IMG/VR virus record: IMGVR_UViG_3300032288_002343
Coordinates: 1-64,000 of that record
Length of the DNA: 64,000 nt
Direction: 5' to 3' (one strand)
Source of the DNA: a virus
Taxonomy: Duplodnaviria; Heunggongvirae; Uroviricota; Caudoviricetes
Shown: piece by piece, positions 43,714-61,846 of the stretch
Position numbering within the stretch: the first letter of the stretch is position 1
How the letters are laid out: every line of letters starts with the position of its first letter
Position numbers and translations under genes: made by a program
Notes under the pieces: model-generated
The model's input: the letters and a program-made list of their open reading frames with translations, nothing else
Told to the model about the DNA's origin: nothing
Databases searched by the model: none

Positions 43714-44012
43714 AAAACCAGTTTTTCTACACTCGTAAGGAGTTAAAATCAGGGACTCCAGAAAACCCTGTGTACAATGTATTTCGTGACAGCTTTAACA
43801 TCAACAAGGTGATTCGCTCTGTTGCTATTGAGGATGGACGTATAATGATTTTATTAGATGATATCCATGAGCGTGCTCAGGAGGTTCCTGAAATTGATCC
43901 TCGTACTAATAAGATGAAGGGTATGAAGCGTCAGAAGAATACATTCCAGTCTGAAATTTATTTAGAAGGAGAAGACGTAGAACGTTTTTATGCTGCCACT
44001 AATATCATGTAA
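43710..44012 (+). CDS. hypothetical protein
   Basis: 100 aa ORF. Confidence 0.4.
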   Translation: MKNQFFYTRKELKSGTPENPVYNVFRDSFNINKVIRSVAIEDGRIMILLDDIHERAQEVPEIDPRTNKMKGMKRQKNTFQSEIYLEGEDVERFYAATNIM

Positions 44013-44742
44013 AATGATCACTTATGGTAGGGTGAGTACGCTTGAGGAAAGTTTAGAATCTTTCCTCAGGCAGGACTACCCTGCTGATAAATGTGAGCTA
44101 GTGATAGTGAATGACTATCCCTTACAAACTCTTAAGTTTGATCACCCACAGGTGAAGATTGTAAATGTCAATCAAACATTCACAACTATTGGAGCTAAGG
44201 AAAACTTTGCAACAGAAATGTGTGATGGAGAGATTATATGCCAGTGGGATGATGATGATTTAGCTATGCCTTGGCATTTACAGAATGTAGCTAAATATTT
44301 CACAGATGATGTGAACATTCTCCATTGGAATCCTGGTGTGTTTTATAACGGAGATAATATAACAGACATCACCTGGATAGGTAATTCAGGAATAGTATTT
44401 CGTAAATCTGTTTGGAAAGAAATAGGAGGACATCCTATTGAGAACGCTGGATATGACATGACATTCATAGAAACTCTGCATAAGTATGGAGGAAGACTAT
44501 TTGCTGAACCTCCTAAAGCTGAAGCTAGCTGGTTTTATATGTGGGGAGGACGTAGCTATCACATGTCTGGTCAGGGACATGATAAACCTGGCAAACCTAA
44601 TGCCATCCAAAGGCACAGTGCATATATAGAAAACCTTAGACAGCAGGGTAAGATTCCTACAGGTGAGGTGCAACTCAATCCTCATTGGAAAAAGGATTAT
44701 GTTAAGATGTTAGAAGACCACATAAAAAAAGCCCCTAGATAG
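43990..44742 (+). CDS. family 2 glycosyltransferase
   Basis: N-terminal GT-A start ITYGRVSTLEESLESFLRQDYP, VIVNDYP, DxD region QWDDDDL. Confidence 0.6.
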   Translation: MLPLISCKMITYGRVSTLEESLESFLRQDYPADKCELVIVNDYPLQTLKFDHPQVKIVNVNQTFTTIGAKENFATEMCDGEIICQWDDDDLAMPWHLQNVAKYFTDDVNILHWNPGVFYNGDNITDITWIGNSGIVFRKSVWKEIGGHPIENAGYDMTFIETLHKYGGRLFAEPPKAEASWFYMWGGRSYHMSGQGHDKPGKPNAIQRHSAYIENLRQQGKIPTGEVQLNPHWKKDYVKMLEDHIKKAPR

Positions 44743-44921: not shown

Positions 44922-45380
44922 TTAATAGCATCCTCCTCTGCATTTACCACCCATCATCATTTTCTTAGGTGACTTACCAGCTTTCTTCATGGCAATAGCT
45001 ACAGCAGCTTGCTTCTTTAAAGCAGCACCGCCTTTAGCTTTCTTCATTTTACCACCATTCTTAATAACACCACGTCCTTTAAGAATATCAGCTTTAGTGA
45101 TTTTACCATCTTTGTTCAGGTCAGGGAAACTCTTACCATTCTTAGCCTTTACCTTAATTCCTTTACGCCCTATGTTCTTTTGAGAAGCAGGCATAGCAGG
45201 CTTATTCTTTTCAAGATTTCTAATCTCTTCTTTAGTAGCTTGACGGTCTTTACGCTCAATCTTACGAGGATTATATTTTGGCATGCTTTTCATTTCCTTT
45301 TTACTAGGAGTGATCATACCACTAGGATACTTACGAGTGGTGGTATCTCCACCCATTTGATACTTTTTAATCTTTCCCAT
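44922..45380 (-). CDS. basic paralog 1 (K/R-rich, MGKIKKYQMG N-terminus)
   Basis: 152 aa, extremely basic. Last gene of a five-gene tandem family. Confidence 0.55.
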   Translation of the reverse strand: MGKIKKYQMGGDTTTRKYPSGMITPSKKEMKSMPKYNPRKIERKDRQATKEEIRNLEKNKPAMPASQKNIGRKGIKVKAKNGKSFPDLNKDGKITKADILKGRGVIKNGGKMKKAKGGAALKKQAAVAIAMKKAGKSPKKMMMGGKCRGGCY

Positions 45381-45401
45381 TTTTATTTGAGTTTTTAATT
45401 G

Positions 45402-45854
45402 TTAGCAATTCCATTTACGGAGAGACTTATTAATTCTGCTATTTGGATCGTTGGCAGTTTTGGCAGATGTCAGTCTTTTCTTCATTCCAGACATACGAGC
45501 ACAAAAACTCTTACGACGATTAGCAGCTTTACTTCCAGGTTTTAGTTTAGAAGGCTTAGTGGTTACAGCTGTCTTAAGCTTGCTTCCAGGATTAGCACGT
45601 CTATAACTTGCTACACCCTTAGCATTCAATCCACCTGAAGGATTCTTTCCTTCCTTTCTTTGCCAAGCTGGTGTACTACCACCGCTACGCATTTTGGGAG
45701 CTCTACGTTCTTCACGTCTAGCTTGTCTATCAGCTTGACGGTTTTCTCTAGCAGCTTGACGTTCTTCCTTACGCACTTGTTTTTCAATACCACAAGAACG
45801 ACCACTAGATCTACCAACACGCATGCCCATTTGAGCTTTCTTAACTGTAGCCAT
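45402..45854 (-). CDS. basic paralog 2 (MATVKKAQMG)
   Basis: 150 aa, R/K-rich. Confidence 0.55.
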   Translation of the reverse strand: MATVKKAQMGMRVGRSSGRSCGIEKQVRKEERQAARENRQADRQARREERRAPKMRSGGSTPAWQRKEGKNPSGGLNAKGVASYRRANPGSKLKTAVTTKPSKLKPGSKAANRRKSFCARMSGMKKRLTSAKTANDPNSRINKSLRKWNC

Positions 45855-46303
45855 TACTTCTTCTTTTTGTAGTAATTAGGATTTTCCCTGTGCCACTTCC
45901 TAACAGAAGCAACACCCTGTTTTACTGTCTTAGCTTTGGCTTTTTTAGTGAGGTTGATTTTGTCCCATTTACCAGCAGGAATACCAGCTGTATGATCTAC
46001 AACAATATCACCTTTCTTATTCTTAAATACCTTGTGAGTTTGTCCACCAACCTTCACAACAGCCCCACCTTTTTTAAGTGTAGAACCTTTGAAAGGTCCT
46101 TTCTTCTTAATAAGTGGTCCGTTAGGAACAGGTGTAATGGATCCCTTGACAGCTGTAATTGTATCACCACTCCTTAAAACACGTTTACCCACATAAGCTT
46201 CTGCTTTCTGTGGGTTACGTACGCCATTTCCTCTTGTTACATTCTGAGGAAGTGTGTTGCGCAATCTAGGAGCGCTCTTGAGGAGTTTCTTAATGCTAGG
46301 CAT
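45854..46303 (-). CDS. basic paralog 3 (MPSIKKLLKS)
   Basis: 149 aa, K-rich. Start overlaps the preceding stop. Confidence 0.55.
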   Translation of the reverse strand: MPSIKKLLKSAPRLRNTLPQNVTRGNGVRNPQKAEAYVGKRVLRSGDTITAVKGSITPVPNGPLIKKKGPFKGSTLKKGGAVVKVGGQTHKVFKNKKGDIVVDHTAGIPAGKWDKINLTKKAKAKTVKQGVASVRKWHRENPNYYKKKK

Positions 46304-46680
46304 TATTTCTTACGCATCTTCTTTAAGGTCTGAGCAAGACGTGCACGCTGACCTAATTTACCTTTAGCCTTTGCAGCTTTAGCAAGCTTAGCAGCAGGGA
46401 TGGGTTTACCAGGCTTAGCACCAAGTTGAGCACGGAGAGCTCCAGGCTTCTTAATAGCCTTTTGAATCCATTTGCCACCTTTAGCTTTAGCCACCTTAGC
46501 ACCCTTCTTAGCAGTCATACTAGTAGCACCAAGTTCTTTATCACGTGTAAGACTAACAGGTGTACGCTTACCAGCAAGTGTCATTTCTTGCACCTTTGTC
46601 CAAGCGCCCTTAGGATCAACAGGTCCTACACGCTTAGTAGAAGCTTTTAAACCAGCTTGAGCTTTTTTAATATGTCTCAT
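46303..46680 (-). CDS. basic paralog 4 (MRHIKKAQAG)
   Basis: 125 aa, K/A-rich. Confidence 0.55.
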   Translation of the reverse strand: MRHIKKAQAGLKASTKRVGPVDPKGAWTKVQEMTLAGKRTPVSLTRDKELGATSMTAKKGAKVAKAKGGKWIQKAIKKPGALRAQLGAKPGKPIPAAKLAKAAKAKGKLGQRARLAQTLKKMRKK

Positions 46681-47114
46681 TTTCCTTTAGCTTTAATTTT
46701 ACGTTCTTGTTTTAGCATTGCTGCTGTAGGTTTTTTACCAGGCTTACCTGCTGCCTTATTACGTTTAGCTGCTGCACGAATATTATCCCACAAACCACGT
46801 TGTGAAACAGATCCATCAGCACGCTTTAACATTTGTTTACCACCCTTGGCCTTAGTCATCTTACCACCAGAGCGTTGTTTAGGAGCAGTTTTTTTAGTGG
46901 TTTTTTCAATAGCTTTATTAAACACATTCTTTAAGCTATCACTCTTAGCTGCTCTTTTGGATAATTCTTGTGAAATATCATCGTATCCTTTTGGACCAAT
47001 AGTTCTTTGTCTAGCAGCAGCCATTCTTGTTCTAGCATCGTAATCAAGAGAATCTCTTTTTCTCTTTGCTTCAGATAGTGTAAATCCTTTCTGAGCTTTT
47101 TTAATATTAGCCAT
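46677..47114 (-). CDS. basic paralog 5 (MANIKKAQKG)
   Basis: 145 aa, K/R-rich. First gene of the array. Confidence 0.55.
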   Translation of the reverse strand: MANIKKAQKGFTLSEAKRKRDSLDYDARTRMAAARQRTIGPKGYDDISQELSKRAAKSDSLKNVFNKAIEKTTKKTAPKQRSGGKMTKAKGGKQMLKRADGSVSQRGLWDNIRAAAKRNKAAGKPGKKPTAAMLKQERKIKAKGK

Positions 47115-47420: not shown

Positions 47421-47695
47421 TCTATTTCAAAAGCTATCGTGGCTGAGCTTTTTATACTCTTAGACAACTTGAGCTTTATGTGGAAGACATTATGTAGTTT
47501 AAGGATCTCTTCCAATAGCATCTGGTTATATTTAGGAACACTGGGTACCAGTCTAAAATGATAAGAATGAGGATTCTTGGTTATCTCCAGGATACTTAAT
47601 TCATCCACTGAGTTAATCACTCCCTCTAGATGTGCAAAATAAGCTACTTCGTTATCAGGCATCACCTCAGGGAAGAACCTCTTATTAATTGTCAT
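47405..47695 (-). CDS. hypothetical protein
   Basis: 96 aa ORF. Confidence 0.4.
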   Translation of the reverse strand: MTINKRFFPEVMPDNEVAYFAHLEGVINSVDELSILEITKNPHSYHFRLVPSVPKYNQMLLEEILKLHNVFHIKLKLSKSIKSSATIAFEIDLENS

Positions 47696-48108
47696 TAGGA
47701 CAGTGTTAGCAGGTACTTAGTTTTTGCAGCTTCTCCAGATAGAGCGTCAGCTAGATTAGCAATGTCATGAAACCCGTTGCTCTCACCAAAACTCTTAAGG
47801 CTTGAGGCGAAACTCATAAGCTCACTCACCACAATACTAGCACTTGCTGTATCTGATAGAGGTTCTACCTTTGGTGCTTTGGGACGCTTGCCCATATAGC
47901 CCATAAGTTTCTCAATCACCCCATCCTTAAAATCATGTACATAATCATATAGTCCACCAAGAGCTTGGTGTTCTGCATAACTCTGTGTTTGCCAATGCAA
48001 TAAATGTAATTGCTCATGGAAGTAGGTGAGCTTTCCAGCAATGCCTTCAAGCGTCATTTCACCAGCCCCACTCTTCAGCATGTCTGAAGGAAATAATGAC
48101 TTTGCCAT
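47695..48108 (-). CDS. hypothetical protein (138 aa; true start MAKSLFPSD)
   Basis: The track's 163-aa version starts inside the poly-Thr repeat of the upstream gene in another frame (MLYSYYNYHYNN...). The ATG at 48108 follows the upstream stop by 2 nt. Confidence 0.45.
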   Translation of the reverse strand: MAKSLFPSDMLKSGAGEMTLEGIAGKLTYFHEQLHLLHWQTQSYAEHQALGGLYDYVHDFKDGVIEKLMGYMGKRPKAPKVEPLSDTASASIVVSELMSFASSLKSFGESNGFHDIANLADALSGEAAKTKYLLTLS

Positions 48109-48110
48109 AA

Positions 48111-48314
48111 TTATTGAATAGTAGTTGTAGTAGTTGTTGTAGGTGCTACTGTTGTTGTAGTGGTAGTTGTAGTAGGAGTACAACATTGATTTGCATCAAT
48201 CTCTTGCCAATTACCAACCTTAGGTTTAAATCGCTGAAGGATTAAACTTCCTGCAATTACACGTCCTGTACCATCGTAACGAACGTATGCCTTTAGCTTA
48301 TTATTAGTTGCCAT
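48111..48314 (-). CDS. small poly-Thr-tailed protein, paralog A (67 aa)
   Basis: MATNNKLKAYVRYDGTGRVIAGSLILQRFKPKVGNWQEIDANQCCTPTTTTTTTTVAPTTTTTTTIQ. Confidence 0.5.
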   Translation of the reverse strand: MATNNKLKAYVRYDGTGRVIAGSLILQRFKPKVGNWQEIDANQCCTPTTTTTTTTVAPTTTTTTTIQ

Positions 48315-48325
48315 ACTTTTAAAAT

Positions 48326-48503
48326 TTAGGGTTGAGTGGTTGTGGTTGTAGTTGTAAGATTACAGCATTCATAAGCTGGAATTTCCACCCACTTACCTAC
48401 CTTGGGTTTTTTCCTTCTTAGAATCAGGCTGCTGGGAACGATTCTCCCAGAACCGTCAAAGCGTACATAAGCTTTGAGAGGGCGACTGTCAATTGTGGCC
48501 ATG
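48326..48503 (-). CDS. small poly-Thr-tailed protein, paralog B (58 aa; below the ORF-track cutoff)
   Basis: Hand translation from the complement ATG at 48503: MATIDSRPLKAYVRFDGSGRIVPSSLILRRKKPKVGKWVEIPAYECCNLTTTTTTTQP. Clear paralog of the 67-aa protein. Confidence 0.45.
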
Positions 48504-48504
48504 A

Positions 48505-49521
48505 TTAATAGTTTAAATTATACTTGTTAAAAAGTTCTTTTAATTCGTTTGCATAATACCATGTACATCTAGTTTTTGATTTCTCATCACTGAGAACAGA
48601 GTTAAGATGTTCATCTTTTGAAGGATCTAGTCCTTGATGATATTTACCTTTATAAAAACAGTTGTGTCCATCCATAAAAGGAGACACAATTCCTGCATTA
48701 TGAAGGATTGGATGTGTTTCTAGTTTAGTAATGGGGTCTGGTGCCCAGCTAAATCCCATTTCAGGAATCACCTTCACCTCTTTTTCTTTTACCCACAGGT
48801 TCCACAGAACAGCCCACATATCAGCACACCAACTTTGGAATCCTTTGTTTTCGTTATCAAAGAATTCTTTGTTCACCTTCTGTAAGTAGCTTCTAATAAC
48901 AATACAGTCATTTATCACCTTGTTCCAAAAACTAGCATCTATGTTCTTAAGGAGGTATTGAGCTCCACCACTATCATCATTCTTAGCTACAGCTTCCTCC
49001 CTACTGATACCAATCACACTTCCTATTTCAGCAAGTATATCGCGTGTCTTGTATTCCTCTAGTTTCTCAGGTTTGACATCTCTCACCTTACTATCAAAAT
49101 ATGCAGCACTTATATAGCTGGTTGTTTCAGAAAGATAACATACATCATCATCCACAAACTGTTGAATATCAAAATGTTGTGTGAACAACACATCTGAATC
49201 ACAGTAGAATATAGCCTTATCGCTTAGTTCTGGATGTTTTTGCCAGTGTCTCCAAAGAGTGTAAGGTCTAAGCACAGGGATGTAGATTCCTAAAAGAGAA
49301 CTTATTTGATGTTCATCTTTATAAAAGTGAAACTCAGCCTCAGGATAGAGATCTATAACTTGTTTCCACTTAGGATTTTCCTCTCTGTAATTAGGAGTGA
49401 AAATAAGAACAATAGCCTTGTCAGATTCGTTTCTCTTTCTAAGGCTCTCCAACCATAAATGTACCTGCCATGTGTAGTAGGTATCATCTGGTTGAACACA
49501 GACATACTTTAAATCCTTCAT
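48505..49521 (-). CDS. putative nucleotide-sugar glycosyltransferase (DxD)
   Basis: 338 aa. Contains FYCDSDVLF (DxD-like). Flanked on both sides by poly-Thr-tailed small genes. Family unclear. Confidence 0.4.
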   Translation of the reverse strand: MKDLKYVCVQPDDTYYTWQVHLWLESLRKRNESDKAIVLIFTPNYREENPKWKQVIDLYPEAEFHFYKDEHQISSLLGIYIPVLRPYTLWRHWQKHPELSDKAIFYCDSDVLFTQHFDIQQFVDDDVCYLSETTSYISAAYFDSKVRDVKPEKLEEYKTRDILAEIGSVIGISREEAVAKNDDSGGAQYLLKNIDASFWNKVINDCIVIRSYLQKVNKEFFDNENKGFQSWCADMWAVLWNLWVKEKEVKVIPEMGFSWAPDPITKLETHPILHNAGIVSPFMDGHNCFYKGKYHQGLDPSKDEHLNSVLSDEKSKTRCTWYYANELKELFNKYNLNY

Positions 49522-49550
49522 ATGTAGTTATTGGTTTTAAAAGTTTCTCC

Positions 49551-49694
49551 TTATGGAGTGGTAGTGGTTGTAGTGGTAGTGCTAGCATTAGCTATAGTAC
49601 CCACTATCCCAATCAGTTGCTGAAGCTGCTTAGAAATATTCCAAAGGAGCTGCGACTGAGGGTCCTGACTTAAGGGTCTTGATGGTATTGCCAT
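49551..49694 (-). CDS. small poly-Thr-tailed protein (47 aa) sharing its N-terminus with the collagen-like fiber
   Basis: Hand translation: MAIPSRPLSQDPQSQLLWNISKQLQQLIGIVGTIANASTTTTTTTTP. The upstream fiber starts MAIPSRQIGWGPQENLLWEIAKQMEQL. Confidence 0.4.
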   Translation of the reverse strand: MAIPSRPLSQDPQSQLLWNISKQLQQLIGIVGTIANASTTTTTTTTP

Positions 49695-49696
49695 GA

Positions 49697-50536
49697 TTAT
49701 GCGATTCTATTTACTGTAAAAATTACTCCTGGAGATTGTGGTATAGTGCTTCCAACAGGAGGTATACTTGTTATAACTGTTTTTCCTTGGTTATTAGTCC
49801 ATTCCATTGCCACTATATCACCAGCAGAAAGTACTAGAAAAACGTTCACTGTCATGAGAGTAGCACCAGGTGTGCCTCCATGAATAGTGGGAGTTGTAAT
49901 GTAACTAGCTGTCTTAGGGACATCAACTCCATTTAATGTAAACCAAACTATAGCATCCTCAACATCATTGCTGAAGTTTTCAAACTGTATGCTAAACTGT
50001 AAATTGTATGTTCCAGCATTAACAATAGTGACATCTCCTGTAAGAGGGTTAAGTGTCACCCCATTTGAAAGATCTGTTTGATCTAGTTTTACTTGTGCAG
50101 GCACACCAGCAGGTGTGTATTGTGCTTGAGAAACACCAGCTCCAATAGCATGGTTAGCTCCACCAGAACTGGCTACACCTCTTGTAATTCCTGTAAAGGT
50201 GTTTCCAGAGATACCTGTGTAACCTATAATCTCTGCACCAATTCTCATATATCCAGGAGAATAAAATCCTGCTGTACTTGCCACCTGAATTGGAGCAGTG
50301 GTATTAGAATTCATTGAAGCTGTAAGAACAGTGGCACTATTAAATATAAAAGCTCCGTGATAGGCATTTGTCAATGATCCAGAAGCACCCTGAGGACCCT
50401 GAGGACCCTGAGGACCTTGAGGACCAACACCACCTATATTACAAAGCTGGCAGCCTAATTGCTCCATTTGCTTTGCAATTTCCCACAAGAGGTTTTCCTG
50501 AGGGCCCCAGCCTATCTGTCTTGACGGAATAGCCAT
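49697..50536 (-). CDS. collagen-like (GPQ)n fiber protein with C-terminal globular domain
   Basis: GGVGPQGPQGPQGPQGASGS encoded by a (CCTGAGGAC)n-like repeat at about 50390-50425. Ser/Thr/Gly/Asn-rich beta-rich C-terminal 200 aa. Confidence 0.6.
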   Translation of the reverse strand: MAIPSRQIGWGPQENLLWEIAKQMEQLGCQLCNIGGVGPQGPQGPQGPQGASGSLTNAYHGAFIFNSATVLTASMNSNTTAPIQVASTAGFYSPGYMRIGAEIIGYTGISGNTFTGITRGVASSGGANHAIGAGVSQAQYTPAGVPAQVKLDQTDLSNGVTLNPLTGDVTIVNAGTYNLQFSIQFENFSNDVEDAIVWFTLNGVDVPKTASYITTPTIHGGTPGATLMTVNVFLVLSAGDIVAMEWTNNQGKTVITSIPPVGSTIPQSPGVIFTVNRIA

Positions 50537-50991
50537 AAGTTCACAAATATATGGTGTTAGTTAGAGAAAACAATGACCCTCAACAAATTACAATAACTAA
50601 GTTAGTTAAAACGGCTCTAACTAAACTTGTTTAAATATTTGGACAGCAAAATATAGGAGGCAAAGAATGATCCTGAGATTCCATAGAAGATAAGATCGGC
50701 TGCCCAAAATGAGCCAGTTACCTCCATTATCAACTTGAAAAGGAAATCGTACCCAAAGGGTAGGAAGAACATTGCCAGCATCAATGATGCGTCTCTTAAG
50801 GCTTTTAGCCTCTGTCTTTGCTTTCTTAACATGATCACCTTCCATAAAGGGGGTTTTCGTTATCTACCTTGCCCTCTATATTTAGAGGACTTTCTGTCTT
50901 TAGGACCTCTGCTTTTAGCAGCTTTCCCACCCTTGCGCTTGCCAAAGGTGATTTTCCTAGATTCGCCTGATGATTTGGTTTTAGCCATGGT

Positions 50992-51948: not shown

Positions 51949-52189
51949 TATTATTTCCTTTTGTTTTATTAATCCATTTGTCTACAGAAGCAATTCCAAA
52001 TGCTCCTAATACTATCACCATAAAACCATCAAAGATAAATTCCTGGATAGGCATCACCTTACCCATAACACCAGTGACAATATCTGTAGCTAGTGTTATT
52101 ACCATCATAAGGAAGGCAATAAATCCAACCACAGCTTTCTCATTGATAGAGTTGTCATCATTAAATAAATCGTGTAAGAACTTTTTCAT
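51923..52189 (-). CDS. holin candidate
   Basis: 88 aa with two hydrophobic helices and a charged C-terminus. Immediately upstream of the endolysin. Confidence 0.5.
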   Translation of the reverse strand: MKKFLHDLFNDDNSINEKAVVGFIAFLMMVITLATDIVTGVMGKVMPIQEFIFDGFMVIVLGAFGIASVDKWINKTKGNNNEQEGTEG

Positions 52190-52779
52190 GCTAATAAATT
52201 GTAGTATTCTTTAAAATGTTTTAAACGGTCAGGAAGACCGATTGTACCACCATTAACACACTTAGTTACAGCTGTAACGGTTGCATCAGAAGCGTCTACA
52301 CATTTTTTCAGACAGTTCTTATGGAAGAACCAGGCAGCTGACAATAAAGGGTATTTAGTGGCTACAAGATCTGGATTAGCTACGATATCTTCAGGGACAA
52401 CAGCGTCAAATGCTTTATAGTTGTCTTTTCCTGTAAGTTGGATGTAGCCTCTTCCACGAAACTTGTATCCTTCACCAGAAGCCTCAGGACCATTTCCCAT
52501 TCTTCCTCCATATACCAGATTAGCTATCTTTTCAGGTTTACGCTCGTACTCCTTAGCTTTAGCTTCTGTGGGGAAATACTTCTTAAAGATGGAAAGAAGA
52601 CCCTTGGCTCCATAATTAAGGTTCTCGTTCACTGCCTTAAATCCAGCTGATTCATGTCCAGCCTGAGCTAGGAAGTGAGCAAGTTTTACGGGGGTGTTAA
52701 TTTCAAACTTGGAGATTGTGTCAGGTAGCTGATCTATTACAGCATCAGGTACGTGACCTTTTAGTTTTTCAATGTTCAT
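52186..52779 (-). CDS. endolysin, glycoside hydrolase family 19 / lysozyme-like
   Basis: LAHFLAQAGHESAGF signature, ...GRGYIQLTG... 197 aa. Confidence 0.7.
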   Translation of the reverse strand: MNIEKLKGHVPDAVIDQLPDTISKFEINTPVKLAHFLAQAGHESAGFKAVNENLNYGAKGLLSIFKKYFPTEAKAKEYERKPEKIANLVYGGRMGNGPEASGEGYKFRGRGYIQLTGKDNYKAFDAVVPEDIVANPDLVATKYPLLSAAWFFHKNCLKKCVDASDATVTAVTKCVNGGTIGLPDRLKHFKEYYNLLA

Positions 52780-53892: not shown

Positions 53893-56800
53893 ATGCCAAA
53901 TAGCTATACATTCTTCAAGCCAGAAATAAGACAGTGGTTCATTGACAATGTTCCCACCAGTAAGAGAATCTTAGATGTAGGCCCAGGACAGGGGACCTAT
54001 TCCAACCTACTTAGAGACCTTGGATATAGGATGGATGCAGTGGAAGTGTGGGCTCCCTACATAGAGCAATTTGATTTGCGATCTAAGTATGATAATGTCT
54101 ATAACGCCAACATCTTAGACTTTGATTTAACAGATTACGACTTTATTATACTAGGTGATGTTCTAGAGCATATTAGCACAGAGAACGCTCAGAACCTAAT
54201 TGACACTATAGTAAACTCTCTAAAAGATTGCCTAGTGGCAATTCCCTACATGATGGAGCAGGACGGGGAAGAGTATGGAAATGTTTATGAGACCCACCTT
54301 CAAGCAGACCTCACTCCTGATGTAATGAGGCAGCGCTATAAGATTTTAGAACCCATCTATAAGAATCAGTATTATGGTTATTACATCAATAAGCGTATTA
54401 GAATAAAGCGTGGGTTTGTAATGTACGCTACAGAAAGCTATTTAGATACTGTACAGGCAGCTGTAGATTCAATTCGTAAATACAGCTCTCTTAACATTTT
54501 TGTATATATGGTAAACTCCACTGCAAGAGTGAGAGGTGCTGTAACTATTGAATGGCCTGTTGCTATAAAACCTACAGAAAAGAAATCGTTTATTGACCGT
54601 GGAGATAGTAATGTCTATAAACTATTAATCCAGCGTCCTCAGATTGTAAGAGATGCACTACGTTATATGGAAACTGTGGCTTATGTAGATAGCGATAGTG
54701 TTGCCACTCCTTATATCGAACGTATTTTTGACATGTTCCCTGAGAAATCCTCCATCCCTTATTTTGTAGAGGGTATTTATGAATGGATGCTTGCTAATGG
54801 TAGAGGGGGAGCTGATTCTTATGATGATCTATCTACCACTCTTGAGCATCCAGCCTGTGAGCTGTTTGGTGTTAACCAGAAGGTTAGAAAGTTATATAGA
54901 CAAACTGGATATTTTGTAGCAGGCCAGTGGTGTGACAAGTTTCTAGCAGAGTGGAGATGGATGTGTATGCATCCTGAGGTATTTAAAAACCCTCAATACT
55001 ATGCACCCTATCATGAAGAAACTATTGTTAATACCCTCCTATGGAAGCATAACTTCCATGAGGGTTTGCCATACATCTATATAAACGGTGGGCTCGATAG
55101 AGTGAATAAAGCATACGGTGGTGAGGCCAAGTATATTCCTGGAATTCGTAACAATTTAGGACACTTCTTTAGACTACCTGATTCAAGACAAGACATCCTC
55201 TTCTTTCATGGAGAGAAAGATCCTGTTAGAATGAAAGAAATATCTGATAGAATAGACTTCTATAATAAGTACAAGATTGACCCCACAAAAAACTGGGGAG
55301 ATATTATTTCTCATAGGATCATCTCTCATTTTACAACAAAGAAGATTGATCCTATGGATATTTTCCATTTTGATACAAGTGCTATTGTTCCAAAAAAGAA
55401 AGGAAAACTTCTTGCTGTAGGAAGTGCTATGGTGTTTGCTAGACAGAATGACTATGTGTGGGGAACAGGTGTAATATCAGACAGAGAGGTGAATATAGAG
55501 GAACATCCTAGAAAGATATATGCTGTAAGAGGACCTATTACTAGAAAAGAATTACTTCGTGCAGGATTAGAATGTCCTGAGGTGTATGGTGATCCTGCTC
55601 TTTTATTTCCACGTATATACCAACCTAATGTCGATAAGAAGTACAAGTATGGAATAATTCCACACTATTCTGAATATCAGAACGCTGATGTTCTTAATGC
55701 TTTGTACAAGCTAGAAGATATGGAAGTGAAAGTGATTAATATCACTACAGGAATAGAACAATTTGTAGATGAGGTGAATGAGTGTGAATACATCATCTCT
55801 TCTAGCTTACATGGTATAATTGTAGCAGATGCATACAGAATACCTAATGTTCGTGTGCGCATGTCTAATGATATTGTAGGGGGAGATTTCAAGTATATGG
55901 ACTACTTTGCATCTGTAAAACGTGAATACCAACACAAACCTATTTGGATTACAGAGAACACTACACTAGAAGATATTGAAAAGTTTCCATATGAATTAGG
56001 AGACATCAGTTGTGCTGATGACCTATTAGCTAATGCTCCTTGGAAAGATCCTGAGTGTGCACTGTTTACTCCTACTAAAATTTTGTTTGTAGCACCGCAT
56101 CTATCTACAGGTGGAATGCCTGCCTTCCTATTGAAAAGAATAGATGCACTTCTTGCACACTCTGATTTTGAGGTGCATGTTGCTGAGTTTAGTTGCTATA
56201 GTAATGAGTTTGTAGTGCAGCGTAATAAAATTAAAGCAACACTAGGTAAAAGATTCCATGAGGTGGGAGCTGACAAGATGAATCTACTAAACATAATCCA
56301 TGATAACAACATAGATGTAGTGCATGTTGATGAGATTATGGAAGGGTTTGACAGCTTTAATCGTGTACCCACACCTGTATTAAGAGCTCTATATGACTCT
56401 AGAAGAACATGGCGTATTGTTGAGACATGTCACAATGTATGGTTCAATCCTGATAAAGACAAAATATTCCATCCTGATGGATATGCATTCTGTACTCCTT
56501 ATCATGAAATCACATTTGGTAACATGCCTTCTGAGAAGAAGGTGATTCAGTTTCCAATTGAGAATAGAGTGCCAATCTATCAGATGAAACGTAGAGCTAA
56601 AGAACAATTAGGATTTGATCTTAACAAAAAACATGTGCTCAATGTAGGACTATGGACTCCTGGTAAAAACCAAATAGAGGGTTTAGAGATAGCTAGACAA
56701 CTCCCTGACATTCAGTTTCATTTTGTAGGCAATCAAGCTCCTAACTTTGAAGACTACTGGGGACCAGCGATGAAAGATCTTCCTCCTAATGTAAAGATTT

Positions 56801-58254
56801 GGGGAGAGCGCTCTGATACAGAAACATTCATGCATGCTGCAGATATGTTCATGTTCAACTCAACGTGGGAATGTAATCCTCTTGTAGTGAGAGAGGCTAT
56901 ATCTTATGGTCTACCTGTACTCACTCGTGATCTACCACAATATGTAGGAATGTTTGATGATTATATTGTGAAATTAGATGATAGTAGAAAGGTTTGGCAA
57001 GTTAGAGAAATACTGAACTCAGTTGAACCAATAAAAATCCCAAATGATACGAACGAACGTTTCTCTAAAGATCATGAAGTTTTCTATCGTCACTTATTAA
57101 ACTTACCACACATTAAACAGAATAAGGTGTCAGATGTAAAGGTGAATACACATTTCATAGGACGCCCTACAGTAGAGGTTTTAGGAGAAAGTGATAAGAC
57201 TTATACAGTTAAGTTTATTGATGATGGAGGATTTATAATACATCAATCAAAGATTAAAGCTAATGAATGGACAGCTGCCAATCGTGCCTATTATACTGAT
57301 TGGAAAATTGAGGTGTATGAAGAAGATGAGTTGATATATGAACATCAGTTTGATGTAAAAGGTAAGCGTGTATATATTGCTTTCGATAGTGCTTCCTTAG
57401 GAGACAATATTGCATGGATTCCATATGTATTAGAGTTTAAGAGAAAACATAACTGTCATGTGATAGTGTCTACCTTCAAGAACTTCTTATTCAAGGATGT
57501 ATATCCTGAGCTAGAGTTTATCAATCCAGGAGAACAAGCACCGAACATATATGCTATGTATAAATTGGGCTGGTTCTATAATTCAAACTTAGAGCCTGTT
57601 GAACCCCATAAAATTCCTCTTCAAAAGGCTGCCACTAACATTCTAGGACTAGAATTCAACGAACTCAATCCTAGAATAAAGCATAATCTTGCTAAGAATG
57701 TATATGGTAAGTATGTAACAATTGCTACTAATTCAACAGCTCAGTGTAAGTTCTGGACTAAAGAAGGCTGGCAGGGACTGATTAACTATCTAGTTGAAAG
57801 AGGATATAAGGTGGTGAATGTATCTATGGAGAATAATCCATTTGACAACTGTGAGCAGTTGAGAGACAAGTCCATGGAAAACACTATGAACACTATTCAC
57901 CACAGTGAATTCTTCATAGGTTTATCTAGTGGATTGAGTTGGTTAGCGTGGGGACTTGGTAAACAGGTTGTTATGATTGCTAACTTCTCAGATGCCTATC
58001 ATGAATTTACGAGCAGATGTACAAGGATTGTAAAAGAAAATGTGTGCCATGGTTGTTGGAACACTCACAAGTTTGATAAGTCAGACTGGTACTGGTGTCC
58101 TTTGCAGAAAGGAACTAACAGAGAATTTGAATGTCACACATCCATCAATGCTAATGATGTAATTGAGAAGGTAGAATTTATTATTGAAAACATGGGCAAA
58201 CACAATCTAGATACTCATTCTAGATGTGATTCATGTGATAAAAACATACTATGA
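53893..58254 (+). CDS. 1453-aa multidomain glycan-synthesis enzyme: SAM methyltransferase + GT-A (DxD) + pyruvyl-transferase-like + GT4 + GT9 heptosyltransferase-like
   Basis: MTase motif I ILDVGPGQG and IILGDVLEH. GT-A DxD AYVDSDS. SSLHGIIVADAYRIPNV (PS-pyruvyl-transferase-like). GT4 N-terminal KILFVAPHLSTGG and C-terminal ECNPLVVREAISYGLPVLT. GT9-like KRVYIAFDSASLGDNIAWIPYVLEFKRKH and KYVTIATNSTAQCKFW. Confidence 0.75.
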   Translation: MPNSYTFFKPEIRQWFIDNVPTSKRILDVGPGQGTYSNLLRDLGYRMDAVEVWAPYIEQFDLRSKYDNVYNANILDFDLTDYDFIILGDVLEHISTENAQNLIDTIVNSLKDCLVAIPYMMEQDGEEYGNVYETHLQADLTPDVMRQRYKILEPIYKNQYYGYYINKRIRIKRGFVMYATESYLDTVQAAVDSIRKYSSLNIFVYMVNSTARVRGAVTIEWPVAIKPTEKKSFIDRGDSNVYKLLIQRPQIVRDALRYMETVAYVDSDSVATPYIERIFDMFPEKSSIPYFVEGIYEWMLANGRGGADSYDDLSTTLEHPACELFGVNQKVRKLYRQTGYFVAGQWCDKFLAEWRWMCMHPEVFKNPQYYAPYHEETIVNTLLWKHNFHEGLPYIYINGGLDRVNKAYGGEAKYIPGIRNNLGHFFRLPDSRQDILFFHGEKDPVRMKEISDRIDFYNKYKIDPTKNWGDIISHRIISHFTTKKIDPMDIFHFDTSAIVPKKKGKLLAVGSAMVFARQNDYVWGTGVISDREVNIEEHPRKIYAVRGPITRKELLRAGLECPEVYGDPALLFPRIYQPNVDKKYKYGIIPHYSEYQNADVLNALYKLEDMEVKVINITTGIEQFVDEVNECEYIISSSLHGIIVADAYRIPNVRVRMSNDIVGGDFKYMDYFASVKREYQHKPIWITENTTLEDIEKFPYELGDISCADDLLANAPWKDPECALFTPTKILFVAPHLSTGGMPAFLLKRIDALLAHSDFEVHVAEFSCYSNEFVVQRNKIKATLGKRFHEVGADKMNLLNIIHDNNIDVVHVDEIMEGFDSFNRVPTPVLRALYDSRRTWRIVETCHNVWFNPDKDKIFHPDGYAFCTPYHEITFGNMPSEKKVIQFPIENRVPIYQMKRRAKEQLGFDLNKKHVLNVGLWTPGKNQIEGLEIARQLPDIQFHFVGNQAPNFEDYWGPAMKDLPPNVKIWGERSDTETFMHAADMFMFNSTWECNPLVVREAISYGLPVLTRDLPQYVGMFDDYIVKLDDSRKVWQVREILNSVEPIKIPNDTNERFSKDHEVFYRHLLNLPHIKQNKVSDVKVNTHFIGRPTVEVLGESDKTYTVKFIDDGGFIIHQSKIKANEWTAANRAYYTDWKIEVYEEDELIYEHQFDVKGKRVYIAFDSASLGDNIAWIPYVLEFKRKHNCHVIVSTFKNFLFKDVYPELEFINPGEQAPNIYAMYKLGWFYNSNLEPVEPHKIPLQKAATNILGLEFNELNPRIKHNLAKNVYGKYVTIATNSTAQCKFWTKEGWQGLINYLVERGYKVVNVSMENNPFDNCEQLRDKSMENTMNTIHHSEFFIGLSSGLSWLAWGLGKQVVMIANFSDAYHEFTSRCTRIVKENVCHGCWNTHKFDKSDWYWCPLQKGTNREFECHTSINANDVIEKVEFIIENMGKHNLDTHSRCDSCDKNIL

Positions 58255-58928
58255 ACCTAGACAACTTTATATGGGAACCAAATCTGTACCCAACATTTAA
58301 AGAAACAATTATCAATGAGATCTTTGAACAGAAGATCTACGAACGTATATTTCCTGTAGAGGAGGGAGATGTAGTGCTGGATATTGGGGCTAGTCTTGGA
58401 CCATTCACATTCTCTATTCTACACAAGAAACCAAAACATGTGTTTGCCCTAGAGCCAAGTTACTCAGAGTTTAAAACGTTGGTTCTCAATACATTACACG
58501 GAAATGTTACACCTATCAACAAAGGGATAGGTGCTAAGGTGGGAGAGTTTAAGTTTGACAACATCTTTCTAAACGATGGTATAAAGATGTACTCAACTAC
58601 ATTCACACAGTTGATTGATGATTATAACATCCAGACAATTGACTTCCTTAAGACAGATTGTGAGGGTGGGGAGTATGACATATTCACTCCTGCTAATCTC
58701 ATATGGATTAAGCAGAACGTAAAGAAGATTGCAGGAGAATGGCACTTAACCACTCCTGAACTAAGAGAAAAGTTTAGAGCATTCAGAGACACCTACTTAA
58801 GAATATTCCATAGACATCAAGTGTATTCAGTGGATGCTGTTAATATCACTTGGGATCTATGGAATGATAAATTTTTGAACTACTATAGTGAAGTGATTCT
58901 TTATATAGACAATCAGGATTATTTGTAG
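58251..58928 (+). CDS. FkbM-family SAM-dependent methyltransferase
   Basis: VLDIGASLGPFTF motif. 225 aa. Start overlaps the mega-enzyme stop. Confidence 0.6.
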   Translation: MNLDNFIWEPNLYPTFKETIINEIFEQKIYERIFPVEEGDVVLDIGASLGPFTFSILHKKPKHVFALEPSYSEFKTLVLNTLHGNVTPINKGIGAKVGEFKFDNIFLNDGIKMYSTTFTQLIDDYNIQTIDFLKTDCEGGEYDIFTPANLIWIKQNVKKIAGEWHLTTPELREKFRAFRDTYLRIFHRHQVYSVDAVNITWDLWNDKFLNYYSEVILYIDNQDYL

Positions 58929-59506
58929 TGATCTCCTCCTACCCAGAGAACAAAAGAACGACGTATACCAGTTGTCACACGTGTAACACGGTGCATCATA
59001 TATGACGGGAAAATAAACACTACGCCTTTTTCTTTAGGAGCTGTCATATAACCATCTCCACCCTGCCAGTATTGTAAATCACCACCTTCATATTCATCAG
59101 GGCCAGACAGTTGTACAGTGATGGATACCTTTCTTTGAGAGAGCCATCCTGGTCCAATATCTTGGTGCCAGCCATAATGACCATTATCTACAGCATGATA
59201 TTCAGTGTACTGAATGCTATCCATTACAGAGTGAAGATCAAACTTCCATAAAGCATTATTAGCTTCTGTTGCCATGTTTATCATCTTCTCATAAAGCCAT
59301 TCCCATTCAGAATTTTTTGGAACCCATTTTATAATAGAAGAACGAATGTCCTTCATTGAATCACTAGCCACTGTGGCTTGTTCAAAAGGAAGAGCAGCAA
59401 CACCAGCATATACACGTTCTAACTCTTCAGGAGAAAACCCCTGTAGATAGTAATAGTAGTTGGTTGGGTCAGTTGTCTCTTTAGGAAATACGTATGTATT
59501 TGTCAT
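58919..59506 (-). CDS. 2OG-Fe(II) oxygenase, prolyl 4-hydroxylase-like (P4Hc)
   Basis: HxD in HYGWHQDIG, second His in MMHRVTRV, RxS in RRSFVLW. GGDLQYW. Confidence 0.7.
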   Translation of the reverse strand: MTNTYVFPKETTDPTNYYYYLQGFSPEELERVYAGVAALPFEQATVASDSMKDIRSSIIKWVPKNSEWEWLYEKMINMATEANNALWKFDLHSVMDSIQYTEYHAVDNGHYGWHQDIGPGWLSQRKVSITVQLSGPDEYEGGDLQYWQGGDGYMTAPKEKGVVFIFPSYMMHRVTRVTTGIRRSFVLWVGGDHYK

Positions 59507-60723
59507 ATGTTTGGTTTATAAATATAATTTGCAACACCCTCTTCAGTTCCAAATTTATTAGGAATCTCATCAAGATCTTTATCTTTTTGTTCGTACACCC
59601 AGTCAGTAATTTTTAACTGCTTGAATCTATTAGCTATGCTTTCATTATAGAACTCAGCAATAGATGCCACTCTACGTTGAATATCAGCACGAGCTACATC
59701 ATGTGAATTGCGCTCTTGTTCATTCTGGTAGATGATTTGTATATATCCTAGACGACAAATCTTACAGAACTTTGTGTACAAGAAACTTCTCACTACTAGT
59801 TCATAATCATCAGCAATAGTCATATCTCTATTATGTCCTCCTATAGACAAGTAGAAACTTTTACGCCATGCTCTAATGTGATTAGGAATTCCTACAATAT
59901 GACGTATAGTTTTTGGATTAATGTTATGTTGATCACAAACATCCCAAATATTTCCTTTGTAATCCTCTCTTCTATACTTTCCATATCCAAAAGCAAACCC
60001 TGGTCCGTATGTAAGAGACTGAAACTGTTCATTCACCTCCACCCAATCAGTGAAGAAGAACCCAACATCTGGATATTTAAGTGCAGCATTATATAAATCT
60101 AATGCACATGTGTCTGTAAGAATATCATCATGATCAAGCTCTGCTAGAATAAATCCTTTGCACAGCATCGCTGCTCTGTATTTAGCTTCACCAATATTAC
60201 CTCCACTCTTCTCTTCAAAATTGTATACACGCACTCGATGGTCATCTTTAGCAATCTTTTTTGCAATCTCAAGAGTTTCTTCATCGTCACTATCATGTAC
60301 AAGCACCCATTCCCAATCTTTATGAATTTGACTTACTAAGGATGCATAAGTTCTTAATAGTTTTTTTCCTGTCTTATACATGGATGTAAAGAAGGAAATT
60401 GTTCTAGCGTTGTTCTGTGTAAGAATCTGATTCATGGCACAGAAATAAGCACGCTGTCCTAGATCTTCTGTTACTGTTTCTGTATTAAACCATCTCTTTC
60501 TTACCTCATGTGTTTCATTAAACAGCTTTGGAAACTCTCTATCTGATTTACCAATTGTAACAATTGCATCTGGTTTGAATTCAACAAGTGTTTTAGTCAA
60601 TTCTTTTTCATCAGGAACATGTTTCACACAAAGTGTTCTTTCTTCAAAATCAAACCTCTGTATAGTTTTTAACTCTGGAGTGCCTGGTCCAACGTATAAT
60701 ATTTTAGGCAACGTGGTTTTCAT
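59503..60723 (-). CDS. family 2 glycosyltransferase
   Basis: WVLVHDSDDEETLEIAKKIAKDDHRVRV and ELDHDDIL (DxD). Confidence 0.6.
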   Translation of the reverse strand: MKTTLPKILYVGPGTPELKTIQRFDFEERTLCVKHVPDEKELTKTLVEFKPDAIVTIGKSDREFPKLFNETHEVRKRWFNTETVTEDLGQRAYFCAMNQILTQNNARTISFFTSMYKTGKKLLRTYASLVSQIHKDWEWVLVHDSDDEETLEIAKKIAKDDHRVRVYNFEEKSGGNIGEAKYRAAMLCKGFILAELDHDDILTDTCALDLYNAALKYPDVGFFFTDWVEVNEQFQSLTYGPGFAFGYGKYRREDYKGNIWDVCDQHNINPKTIRHIVGIPNHIRAWRKSFYLSIGGHNRDMTIADDYELVVRSFLYTKFCKICRLGYIQIIYQNEQERNSHDVARADIQRRVASIAEFYNESIANRFKQLKITDWVYEQKDKDLDEIPNKFGTEEGVANYIYKPNI

Positions 60724-61846
60724 GATACTTGGTTTTGAAATGATTCAGGTTATCAAGCAACCTTGGTTTGTGGTGCTCAAAATCTGGATCATCTATAATT
60801 GCATTAATCAATTTAACACCTTGCTCAGGTTTGTTAGTCCAAAAGCAAGATACAGAAAGTTCATCATAATTCCATTTACCATATGCTGATTCATCTACAA
60901 AAAGAATATACTTATTCTTCATAGCAGTCAAGTCTTTCTTGACAGCCTCATTTAGGTAGTGATATCCCTTTTCAAAGTCTCTTAACGTGTTAAAATGTAT
61001 TCCCATGTAATGATAGGGCTCAGCTCTGTCTGGGAATATTTCTATAGCTTTTCTCATCTCACGTTCAATAAGTTCAATATCAGCATTCATGCTTATGTAG
61101 ATTTTTCCTATCCTAAGCTGTGCCTCAAATCTTTCTTCTATCCACGTGTTTTGTAGTTTTAGGTAGAGATTGTTCCACTGTAGCGCTTCTGTGTACATGC
61201 CATAATCCATGTAGCTTTGTGCTGTATAGAAGGCAGATCTGTTGTTTAGATCATCTGGGTCCTCTATAAGCGTGTCAAAGAATTGCTTCTGAAGGCGCTG
61301 TGCATCATAGAAAAACTTCTTAGGATCGAATGCACGTGACCCAATACCCTCACAAATGATATAAGAGGAATCACTGATGTCGCCCATTGAAAAGTTTGGC
61401 TTCTCAAGGCACTTGATTGTAGTGTGAGCCACACCACAGAACTTCCATGTATAAGAAGCTTTGAATAAAATAAGTGCTTTATAGTTAGAACCCCCACGTC
61501 TAACATTCATATAGTAGGAGTCTTTGTCAGGGTCATTTTCGGGAAAGAAAAATTCGCCAGCCAAAAGATCGTCAGCATCCAAATGCATGATATAATCTGC
61601 CTTATCTTTAGCACAAGCAATCATCTTAGTCTTGCTCTTGTCAAATCCCTCAAAGGTTTCAGCATAGAACTTTCCTGGAATGTTCTTCTCTTTAAAGAAG
61701 GTTTCCACTATTTCTTGTGTTCTATCTGTAGAACCAGTGTCATATACGACCCAGTGGTCAATATATTTATAGACAGACTCAAGCGTATCTTTGATACAAT
61801 GTTCTTCGTTCTTGCACATTGTAGCAAAGCAAATTGTTGGTTTCAT
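60704..61846 (-). CDS. family 2 glycosyltransferase with TPR-like C-terminal domain
   Basis: ICFATMCKNEEHCIKDTLESV...VYDTGSTDRT...MHLDADDLL. TPR-like YHYMGIHFNTLRDFEKGYHYLNEA. Confidence 0.6.
   Translation of the reverse strand: MKPTICFATMCKNEEHCIKDTLESVYKYIDHWVVYDTGSTDRTQEIVETFFKEKNIPGKFYAETFEGFDKSKTKMIACAKDKADYIMHLDADDLLAGEFFFPENDPDKDSYYMNVRRGGSNYKALILFKASYTWKFCGVAHTTIKCLEKPNFSMGDISDSSYIICEGIGSRAFDPKKFFYDAQRLQKQFFDTLIEDPDDLNNRSAFYTAQSYMDYGMYTEALQWNNLYLKLQNTWIEERFEAQLRIGKIYISMNADIELIEREMRKAIEIFPDRAEPYHYMGIHFNTLRDFEKGYHYLNEAVKKDLTAMKNKYILFVDESAYGKWNYDELSVSCFWTNKPEQGVKLINAIIDDPDFEHHKPRLLDNLNHFKTKYHENHVA

Follow-up and report, generated by a model that had tools for sequence, protein, structure and literature searches.

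A compact gene block encodes three tiny proteins with poly-threonine tails

The stretch of DNA analysed here, referred to below as the window, comprises positions 1 to 64,000 of the IMG/VR virus record IMGVR_UViG_3300032288_002343, from the Caudoviricetes. On its minus strand lies a compact block of co-oriented genes that encodes, in order, a fibre, a 47-amino-acid (aa) protein, a 338-aa enzyme, a 58-aa protein, a 67-aa protein, and a DUF5856 protein. An initial annotation, made from the nucleotide sequence, had drawn attention to the three tiny open reading frames (ORFs), and all three lie where it had placed them: the 47-aa protein at 49551..49694 (C terminus ...ANASTTTTTTTTP), the 58-aa protein at 48326..48502 (...YECCNLTTTTTTTQP), and the 67-aa protein at 48111..48314 (...NQCCTPTTTTTTTTVAPTTTTTTTIQ). 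The 47-aa protein consists of an N-terminal module that we call FibN followed by a C-terminal poly-Thr tail (STTTTTTTTP), in which one serine and eight threonines are encoded at 49557..49583. In the 58-aa protein, a different module, N48, occupies residues 1-47, ends in Cys-Cys, and is followed by the tail NLTTTTTTTQP, with seven threonines encoded at 48335..48355. The 67-aa protein carries a second N48 paralogue and a tail with two Thr blocks (TPTTTTTTTTVAPTTTTTTTIQ) encoded within 48120..48173, one at 48150..48173 and the other at 48120..48140. These four segments are the only Thr/Ser runs of six or more residues found in a six-frame scan of the 64-kb window, and all of them fall inside the three tiny ORFs. 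Their Thr codons are a mixture of ACA, ACT, and ACC. Therefore, the repeat exists at the amino-acid level and points to selection on the amino acid rather than to a pure DNA microsatellite.

The 338-aa enzyme, a GT-A-fold glycosyltransferase-like protein of the family phrog_4417 and a proposed Thr O-glycosyltransferase, is encoded at 48505..49521 (minus strand). Contrary to the initial description, the two N48 genes do not flank it; both lie downstream. Upstream of the 47-aa gene, the 279-aa fibre (49697..50536, minus strand) begins with a FibN module (MAIPSRQIGWGPQENLLWEIAKQMEQLGCQLC), continues into a short collagen-like stretch of GPQ repeats, and ends in a head; orthologues occur in related phages. 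Five to six GPQ/GAS triplets are visible in it. The protein matches Pfam Collagen (E=0.046) and BclA_C (E=0.0074) with scores that miss the curated cut-offs, and it has weak PHROG matches to tail fibre and minor tail families. The first 27 residues of the 47-aa protein had been described as shared with this fibre; the two segments are homologous, but only 16 of the 27 residues (59%) are identical. The other end of the block is occupied by a 137-aa DUF5856 (Dps-like) gene whose start, as in relatives, is at 48108 (minus strand). A longer overlapping ORF of 163 aa (47695..48186, minus strand) opens with 26 residues (MLYSYYNYHYNN...) that are the Thr codons of the 67-aa gene read in another frame. 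It is an alternative-frame artefact of the kind that the Thr tails had been expected to create, and the true gene is DUF5856 from 48108. The analysis contains nothing to support ribosomal frameshifting at the ACN repeats, which had also been suggested. Three junctions in the block, rather than the two noted at first, have the arrangement TAA-NN-ATG, one of them where the enzyme gene meets the 58-aa gene (TAATCATG). The junction between the enzyme and the next gene keeps this 2-nucleotide spacing in 9 of the 26 cases that could be parsed among the 80 related loci described below, and we reject translational coupling as a conserved feature.

The tiny proteins are conserved and their tails are under selection

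The 58-aa and 67-aa proteins are paralogues with 64% identity and an invariant Cys-Cys, as first proposed, and they belong to separate orthologue groups with 713 and 400 homologous clusters, respectively. We compared the tails of 240 listed homologues, 120 for each group. The 48-aa N48 core is 85-100% identical to the query in this set, and tail length varies from 10 to 53 aa, consistent with the variation that had been anticipated. A Thr/Ser run of at least five residues is present in 239 of the 240, including a Thr-rich C-terminal tail in nearly all of the 120 listed orthologues of the 67-aa protein. Tails contain between one and five TTTTTTT-x-x-P blocks and, at 64% Thr, 9% Pro, and 8% Ser, are low-complexity segments of the mucin-like Pro/Thr/Ser type. 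At least 21 of the 80 related loci encode an orthologue of the 47-aa protein that shares its layout and is 45-57 aa long. The ratio of nonsynonymous to synonymous substitution rates (dN/dS) is ~0.11 for the N48 core and ~0.15 for FibN. The three tiny ORFs are real genes under purifying selection. Because Thr/Ser runs are near-universal, the junction between module and tail is fixed, and the Thr codons are mixed, the poly-Thr tails are a selected feature of the proteins.

Scans of the three tiny proteins against Pfam, PHROGs, and NCBIfam yielded only a sub-threshold, low-complexity match to DUF3439, and a cluster look-up returned only the name "hypothetical protein". The structural model of N48 is a three-stranded β sheet spanning residues 10-41 (predicted local distance difference test score, pLDDT, ~87) with a disordered tail.

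N48 and FibN are N-terminal modules of larger protein families

The organisation of the block was compared across 80 related loci, from which the following architecture counts are taken. The usual order is one or more FibN proteins, the enzyme, and then one or two N48 proteins, with a poly-Thr-bearing N48 protein downstream of the enzyme in ~70 of the 80. Thr runs are concentrated around the enzyme gene, with 324 of the 352 runs on the same strand lying within -2 to +3 kb of it. N48 and FibN are always N-terminal in the proteins of these loci. In an exhaustive search, N48 was found in 785 clusters at 50% identity and was N-terminal in the 150 that were listed. Among 92 N48 proteins, 74 have poly-Thr starting two residues past the Cys-Cys; in those with FibN it starts at residue 35-39. 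The three tiny proteins had been regarded as one family, but there are two N-terminal modules, with N48 used twice and FibN once. Some proteins, among them P0361, P0364, P0376, P0382, and P0395, have tandem pairs of N48 at the N terminus, each with its own Cys-pair end.

The Thr segment occurs in two forms. It reaches the C terminus, giving a tail-only protein, in 78 of the 103 proteins with N48 and in 21 of the 55 with FibN, and such headless tails are present in 63 of the 80 loci. In the other form it is a linker to diverse C-terminal heads, which include Fib_succ_major, Laminin_G_3, Lcl_C, ice-binding-like, leucine-rich repeat (LRR), β-propeller, and Peptidase_S74 domains, lectin-like heads among them. 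This is the architecture expected of fibres or adhesins. Peptidase_S74, the endosialidase chaperone, cleaves itself and is characteristic of phage fibres and spikes. None of the three window proteins has it, but it was detected in relatives with N48, namely a 137-aa protein of locus L063 (E=2e-5) and P0388 (E=2e-8), which connects the N48 family with fibre-like proteins. One relative encodes N48, poly-Thr, and the Peptidase_S74 chaperone in a single protein, and cleavage of that protein would yield a tail-only product. Because sibling proteins carry heads on the same modules, we read N48 and FibN as particle-docking ends, which is the most likely role that their sequence context suggests. The tiny proteins would then be headless appendage proteins, the minimal members of large modular families. 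As a speculation, the Cys-Cys that precedes the tail might staple chains together after release, by analogy with collagen cystine knots.

The 338-aa enzyme has a predicted GT-A fold

PHROGs places the enzyme in the unnamed family phrog_4417, and its homologues number more than 2,700. It matches no Pfam family at E<=1, no NCBIfam model, and no PDB sequence at E<=10. Its AlphaFold2 model (pLDDT 93) is a single Rossmann-like α/β/α domain that superposes on retaining GT-A glycosyltransferases, with glycogenin among the top structural matches and GlyE (PDB 5gvv) as a further structural relative. On the strength of this model we assign the enzyme a GT-A fold. Compared with the retaining GT-A enzymes glycogenin, LgtC, and UGGT (families GT8 and GT24), it is only 9-13% identical in sequence and ~80-100 residues longer, and the acceptors differ. 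At the sequence level, no profile match places it in CAZy GT8 or Pfam Glyco_transf_8.

A DxD motif follows a hydrophobic strand (FYCD108-S109-D110) and is invariant in 32 close homologues, so that the description of the protein as a DxD glycosyltransferase in the initial annotation is right at the level of the fold. D108-S-D110, G186-A-Q, H274, G277, and K291 are all invariant in seven phage lineages, whose hosts belong to two phyla. The segment H274-N-A-G277, likewise invariant in homologues, is a candidate for the C-terminal HxxG-type histidine that completes the metal site of GT8 enzymes. Together, the DxD motif and the conserved histidine suggest a metal-dependent enzyme that uses a nucleotide sugar.

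Enzyme homologues adjoin Thr-tailed proteins in cultured phages

By tblastn, 77 records of cultured phages contain a homologue of the enzyme, and in every lineage inspected the homologue adjoins proteins with Thr runs. In the Enterococcus phage phiFL1A, the major head protein ends in ...TTTTTKPTTTTTKPTTTTTTTQG and the major tail protein in ...TTTTTSTTTTTTSSTTTTTTTQASSK; the genome has Thr runs nowhere else, and apart from the enzyme homologue (gp51) its annotation lists no glycosyltransferase. The Lacticaseibacillus phage R9.1 has a Thr run followed by SHV at the end of both its major head and its major tail protein, and in the Lactococcus phage 1706 the capsid/protease ORF and the major tail protein both end in a Thr run followed by HHD. 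PHROG matches back the head and tail assignments in phiFL1A, R9.1, and 1706, and in each of these phages the enzyme homologue is adjacent to one of the Thr-tailed major head or tail genes. An ORF annotated as the major tail protein ends in 16 threonines in the Staphylococcus phage PMBT8. Two adjacent ORFs have Thr tails in the Lactobacillus myovirus Semele, and two upstream ORFs have long Thr/Ser linkers in the Chryseobacterium phage MA9V-3.

Further features of these loci deserve mention. Within one phage, the same cap follows the Thr run on the major head and major tail proteins, TSHV in R9.1 (L114) and THHD in 1706 (L115), which suggests either a shared recognition element or a tag copied between genes. 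In Semele, a 115-aa "major tail protein" (L117:8655-9002) directly upstream of the enzyme homologue consists of a ~57-aa N-terminal domain and five TTTTTSTTTVKP-like repeats, a small anchor-plus-tail arrangement that parallels the tiny proteins of the window. In MA9V-3, three ORFs upstream of the enzyme homologue (L005:2615-5004) have another ~50-aa N-terminal module (...TG.PTGNT+PN.P.DPDYI.P...CP). This module ends in Cys-Pro, with poly-Thr/Ser directly after it in the first ORF and further in in the third, and it may be a third anchor module that follows the same logic.

Enzyme and tails are gained and lost together

Further evidence that the enzyme and the tails belong together comes from 25 IMG/VR loci that encode homologous Enterococcus phage tail proteins. 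Thr tails are found on the tail protein and a capsid-like ORF in 12/12 enzyme-positive loci and in 0/13 enzyme-negative loci (Fisher p ~2e-7). Enzyme-positive lineages have 89-97% core identity to an enzyme-negative lineage, compared with 65-85% to other positives. Because the positives are closer kin to negatives than to one another, the tag and the enzyme were gained or lost together at least three times independently.

Within the clade of the window itself, relatives were recovered through the neighbouring DUF5856 gene. Enzyme and tails are both present in 53 of 56, a contrast of little power. Locus L153 (4617-6987; IMGVR_UViG_3300028025_002503) lacks the GT-A gene, and its three N48 proteins have no poly-Thr; its FibN protein has a poly-Pro linker (PAPGPPPPPPPAL) and likewise no poly-Thr. 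This locus looks like a natural knockout and fits a link between enzyme and tails. On these comparisons of sequence, we consider such a link very likely.

A proposed virion-appendage glycosylation cassette

The block formed by the fibre, the 47-aa protein, the enzyme, the 58-aa protein, and the 67-aa protein is best explained as a cassette with which a distant crAss-like phage glycosylates its virion appendages. The tiny proteins would each comprise a short folded N-terminal module, N48 or FibN, joined to a mucin-like Pro/Thr/Ser-rich tail. The enzyme, a putative soluble GT-A transferase of the retaining GT8/GT24 structural type, would place the first sugar on Thr hydroxyls in the cytoplasm ahead of assembly, and the other glycosyltransferases, methyltransferases, and pyruvyl transferase encoded in the window may then extend or decorate the glycan. 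The result would be particles with glycosylated bristles, and glycosylated stalks on fibres that have heads. We regard it as probable that the enzyme acts in this manner on the Thr runs of appendage proteins and, in phages of Firmicutes, on the major head and tail proteins, with extension by other transferases a further possibility. We infer that O-glycosylation is what links enzyme and tails, with the enzyme as the initiating transferase and the tiny proteins on the virion, where the glycan could serve in shielding, solubility, protease resistance, or adhesion. The early suggestion that the poly-Thr tails are O-glycan acceptors thus gains strong comparative support from the GT-A fold, from Thr-tailed neighbours in unrelated phages, and from joint gain and loss, while keeping the status of an inference. 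A broader form of the proposal is a widespread, hitherto unrecognised phage system in which the phrog_4417 family, as a dedicated GT-A family, recognises C-terminal or linker poly-Thr tags and converts any virion protein that bears one into a mucin-like glycoprotein, making tag and enzyme a portable module. The tag would be carried by head and tail subunits in Firmicutes phages and by fibres and bristle proteins in an abundant environmental crAss-like clade. We give this general form slightly better than an even chance.

Several observations weigh against the cassette as we describe it. The placement of the tiny proteins on the virion is read from the domain architecture of their siblings. In addition, the N48 core has no homologue in cultured phages by tblastn, and a fold search with the N48 model returned nothing better than E=4.7. 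On balance we still think it rather likely that the tiny proteins are located on the virion. The glycan, its nucleotide-sugar donor, and the activity of the enzyme are likewise predictions, and the enzyme could extend a glycan rather than initiate one, by analogy with its structural relative GlyE. Because loci of one phage clade share ancestry, there are fewer independent observations than the raw counts suggest. Finally, locus L141 has the enzyme, yet the 6 kb upstream of its DUF5856 gene contain no Thr run.

This last locus would suit an alternative explanation, in which poly-Thr is an unmodified flexible spacer and the enzyme acts elsewhere, on a host surface polysaccharide, teichoic acid, DNA, or a small molecule. 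A spacer would also account for the many family members in which poly-Thr links the anchor module to a head, and for the poly-Pro found at the same position in L153. It fits poorly with the retention of headless tails in 63 of the 80 loci, with the restriction of tails on head and tail proteins to enzyme-positive loci (12/12 vs 0/13, through at least three independent events), and with the position of the enzyme gene inside the structural module beside its presumed substrates, and we consider it unlikely. The headless tails could instead be explained by decay, with the tiny ORFs as fibre genes that have lost their heads and the Thr tail as a functionless left-over linker; the same anchor and linker also occur in full-length siblings, and the region is a fast-changing cassette. 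Yet purifying selection on the cores is strong (dN/dS 0.11), tail-only is the commonest form of N48 protein (78 of 103) and has been kept in two separate orthologue groups, and all tails stay in the Thr frame with a mucin-like composition. Moreover, the relative with N48, poly-Thr, and Peptidase_S74 would itself mature to a tail-only protein. Decay is accordingly an improbable account of these genes, a little more so than the carrier scheme considered next.

The presence of the self-glucosylating primer glycogenin among the top structural matches, together with the unusually many glycan enzymes in the window, raises the idea that the glycogenin-like enzyme and other transferases use the small proteins as primers or carriers for a long polysaccharide, to be released or to remain bound to the cell. 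We think this quite unlikely, given that the tails of Firmicutes phages sit on major head and tail proteins in the company of no other annotated glycosyltransferase, and that the siblings with N48 and FibN resemble fibres or adhesins. The same siblings, in which the N terminus is fused to large globular heads, speak against the peptides being precursors of a natural product, either lanthipeptide-like, formed from Cys and dehydrated Thr, or glycocin-like. Small size, a leader-like conserved N terminus, Cys-Cys, a Thr-rich C terminus, and an adjacent modifying enzyme would all be expected of such precursors, but in those flanking genes that were scanned there was no domain of a dehydratase, cyclase, S-glycosyltransferase, protease, or exporter, and in other phages the partners of this enzyme family are head and tail proteins, so that we give this possibility hardly any credence. 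None of the four alternatives explains the joint gain and loss of enzyme and tails.

Relation to known glycosylation systems

The nearest precedent for the proposed cassette is found in mycobacteriophages, to which the initial annotation had also pointed. Phage-encoded glycosyltransferases of Che8, Corndog, and Myrna are described as modifying the C termini of the phages' own structural proteins (Freeman et al. 2023, as reported in PMC12363180 and PMC12619734), and glycosylation of mycobacteriophage particles shields them from antibody binding and lowers the production of neutralising antibodies (PMC12363180). The tagged proteins of Firmicutes phages resemble this system in being the major head and major tail subunits. 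In contrast, the tagged proteins of the window are small stand-alone anchor-plus-tail proteins and fibres. The mycobacteriophage enzymes are unrelated and the poly-Thr tails are missing: comparison of the 338-aa family with Che8 gp108-110 by BLASTP and profile search gave nothing better than E ~0.4, and the C termini of the Che8 capsid and tail-tube proteins, ...NKTGS and ...YSDGS, contain no poly-Thr. The hosts differ as well, being Bacteroidota and Firmicutes here and Actinobacteria for mycobacteriophages. Mycobacteriophage glycosylation is analogous to the system proposed here, not homologous with it.

More distant parallels exist outside phages. Ser-rich-repeat adhesins of Gram-positive bacteria, such as PsrP with its GT8 enzyme GlyE, have Ser-rich repeats of hundreds of residues, are exported by an accessory Sec pathway, and are anchored in the cell wall, with glycosylation initiated by the GtfA/GtfB pair. 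The 47-67-aa proteins differ from these adhesins in having no signal peptide, long Ser repeat, or cell-wall anchor, and in pairing a Thr repeat with a virus-particle context. Ser-rich-repeat adhesins and the mucin-type domains of eukaryotes may serve as mechanistic analogies. PBCV-1 A64R and mimivirus R699, which are connected with capsid or fibril glycosylation, belong to viruses of eukaryotes and to other enzyme families, and we know of no stand-alone anchor-plus-tail proteins in giant-virus glycosylation.

Our literature search, whose coverage was incomplete so that a prior description is possible, found no paper linking poly-Thr tails to the phrog_4417 enzyme family, nor did we find poly-Thr C termini on major head or tail proteins discussed. 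If the proposed mechanism is correct, virion glycosylation would reach further groups of phages, relying there on another enzyme family and on a simple, recognisable sequence tag. These groups would cover phages of Enterococcus and Staphylococcus, which are candidates for phage therapy, phages of Lactococcus and Lactobacillus, which matter to the dairy industry, and a very abundant uncultured crAss-like clade. A function would also be assigned to phrog_4417, the poly-Thr C termini of major head and tail proteins would have an explanation, and N48 and FibN would stand as two new N-terminal anchor modules. The hypothesis can already be addressed in culture, since phiFL1A, 1706, PLE3/R9.1, Semele, and PMBT8 all carry the module, and a short tag served by one enzyme could become a tool for glyco-engineering phage particles.

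Genomic context of the block

The portal and terminase of the window match crAss-like phage families, with ~26% identity between its portal and those of gut crAss-like phages. A nucleotide search of cultured phages found none that were close, and the region of the block gave only a collagen-repeat match to Klebsiella phage fibres. The relatives of the window are metagenomic contigs of 86-119 kb.

The window encodes an additional set of candidate glycan enzymes. A 1453-aa multidomain protein (53893..58254, plus strand) has Pfam matches to methyltransferase, polysaccharide pyruvyl transferase, GT1, and GT9-like domains, and a related gene is present nearby in the relative L001. It is followed by an FkbM-type methyltransferase gene (58251..58928). 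Of the three GT2 enzymes in the window, two are encoded at 59503..60723 and 60704..61846 on the minus strand (Pfam Glycos_transf_2). A further transferase gene lies at 43990..44742. The 1453-aa gene and the FkbM-type methyltransferase gene face these two GT2 genes and a DUF6445 gene, a glycan toolkit that is unusually large for a phage. The 1453-aa enzyme and the two GT2 enzymes are possible glycan-elaborating partners of the tail system.

Basic proteins are encoded on either side of the block. At 44922..47114 on the minus strand are five consecutive paralogues of 125-152 aa that are very rich in Lys and Arg and alike at their N termini (MxxIKKAQxG...). The array is kept in relatives, where one member carries DUF6321, and its products could be internal or DNA-associated virion proteins. 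Beyond the fibre, between the block and a cassette of small membrane proteins with a GH19-type lysin (52186..52779), a 42-aa ORF at 50860..50988 (minus strand) encodes an extremely basic protein (MAKTKSSGESRKITFGKRKGGKAAKSRGPKDRKSSKYRGQGR) that is almost unchanged in L001.

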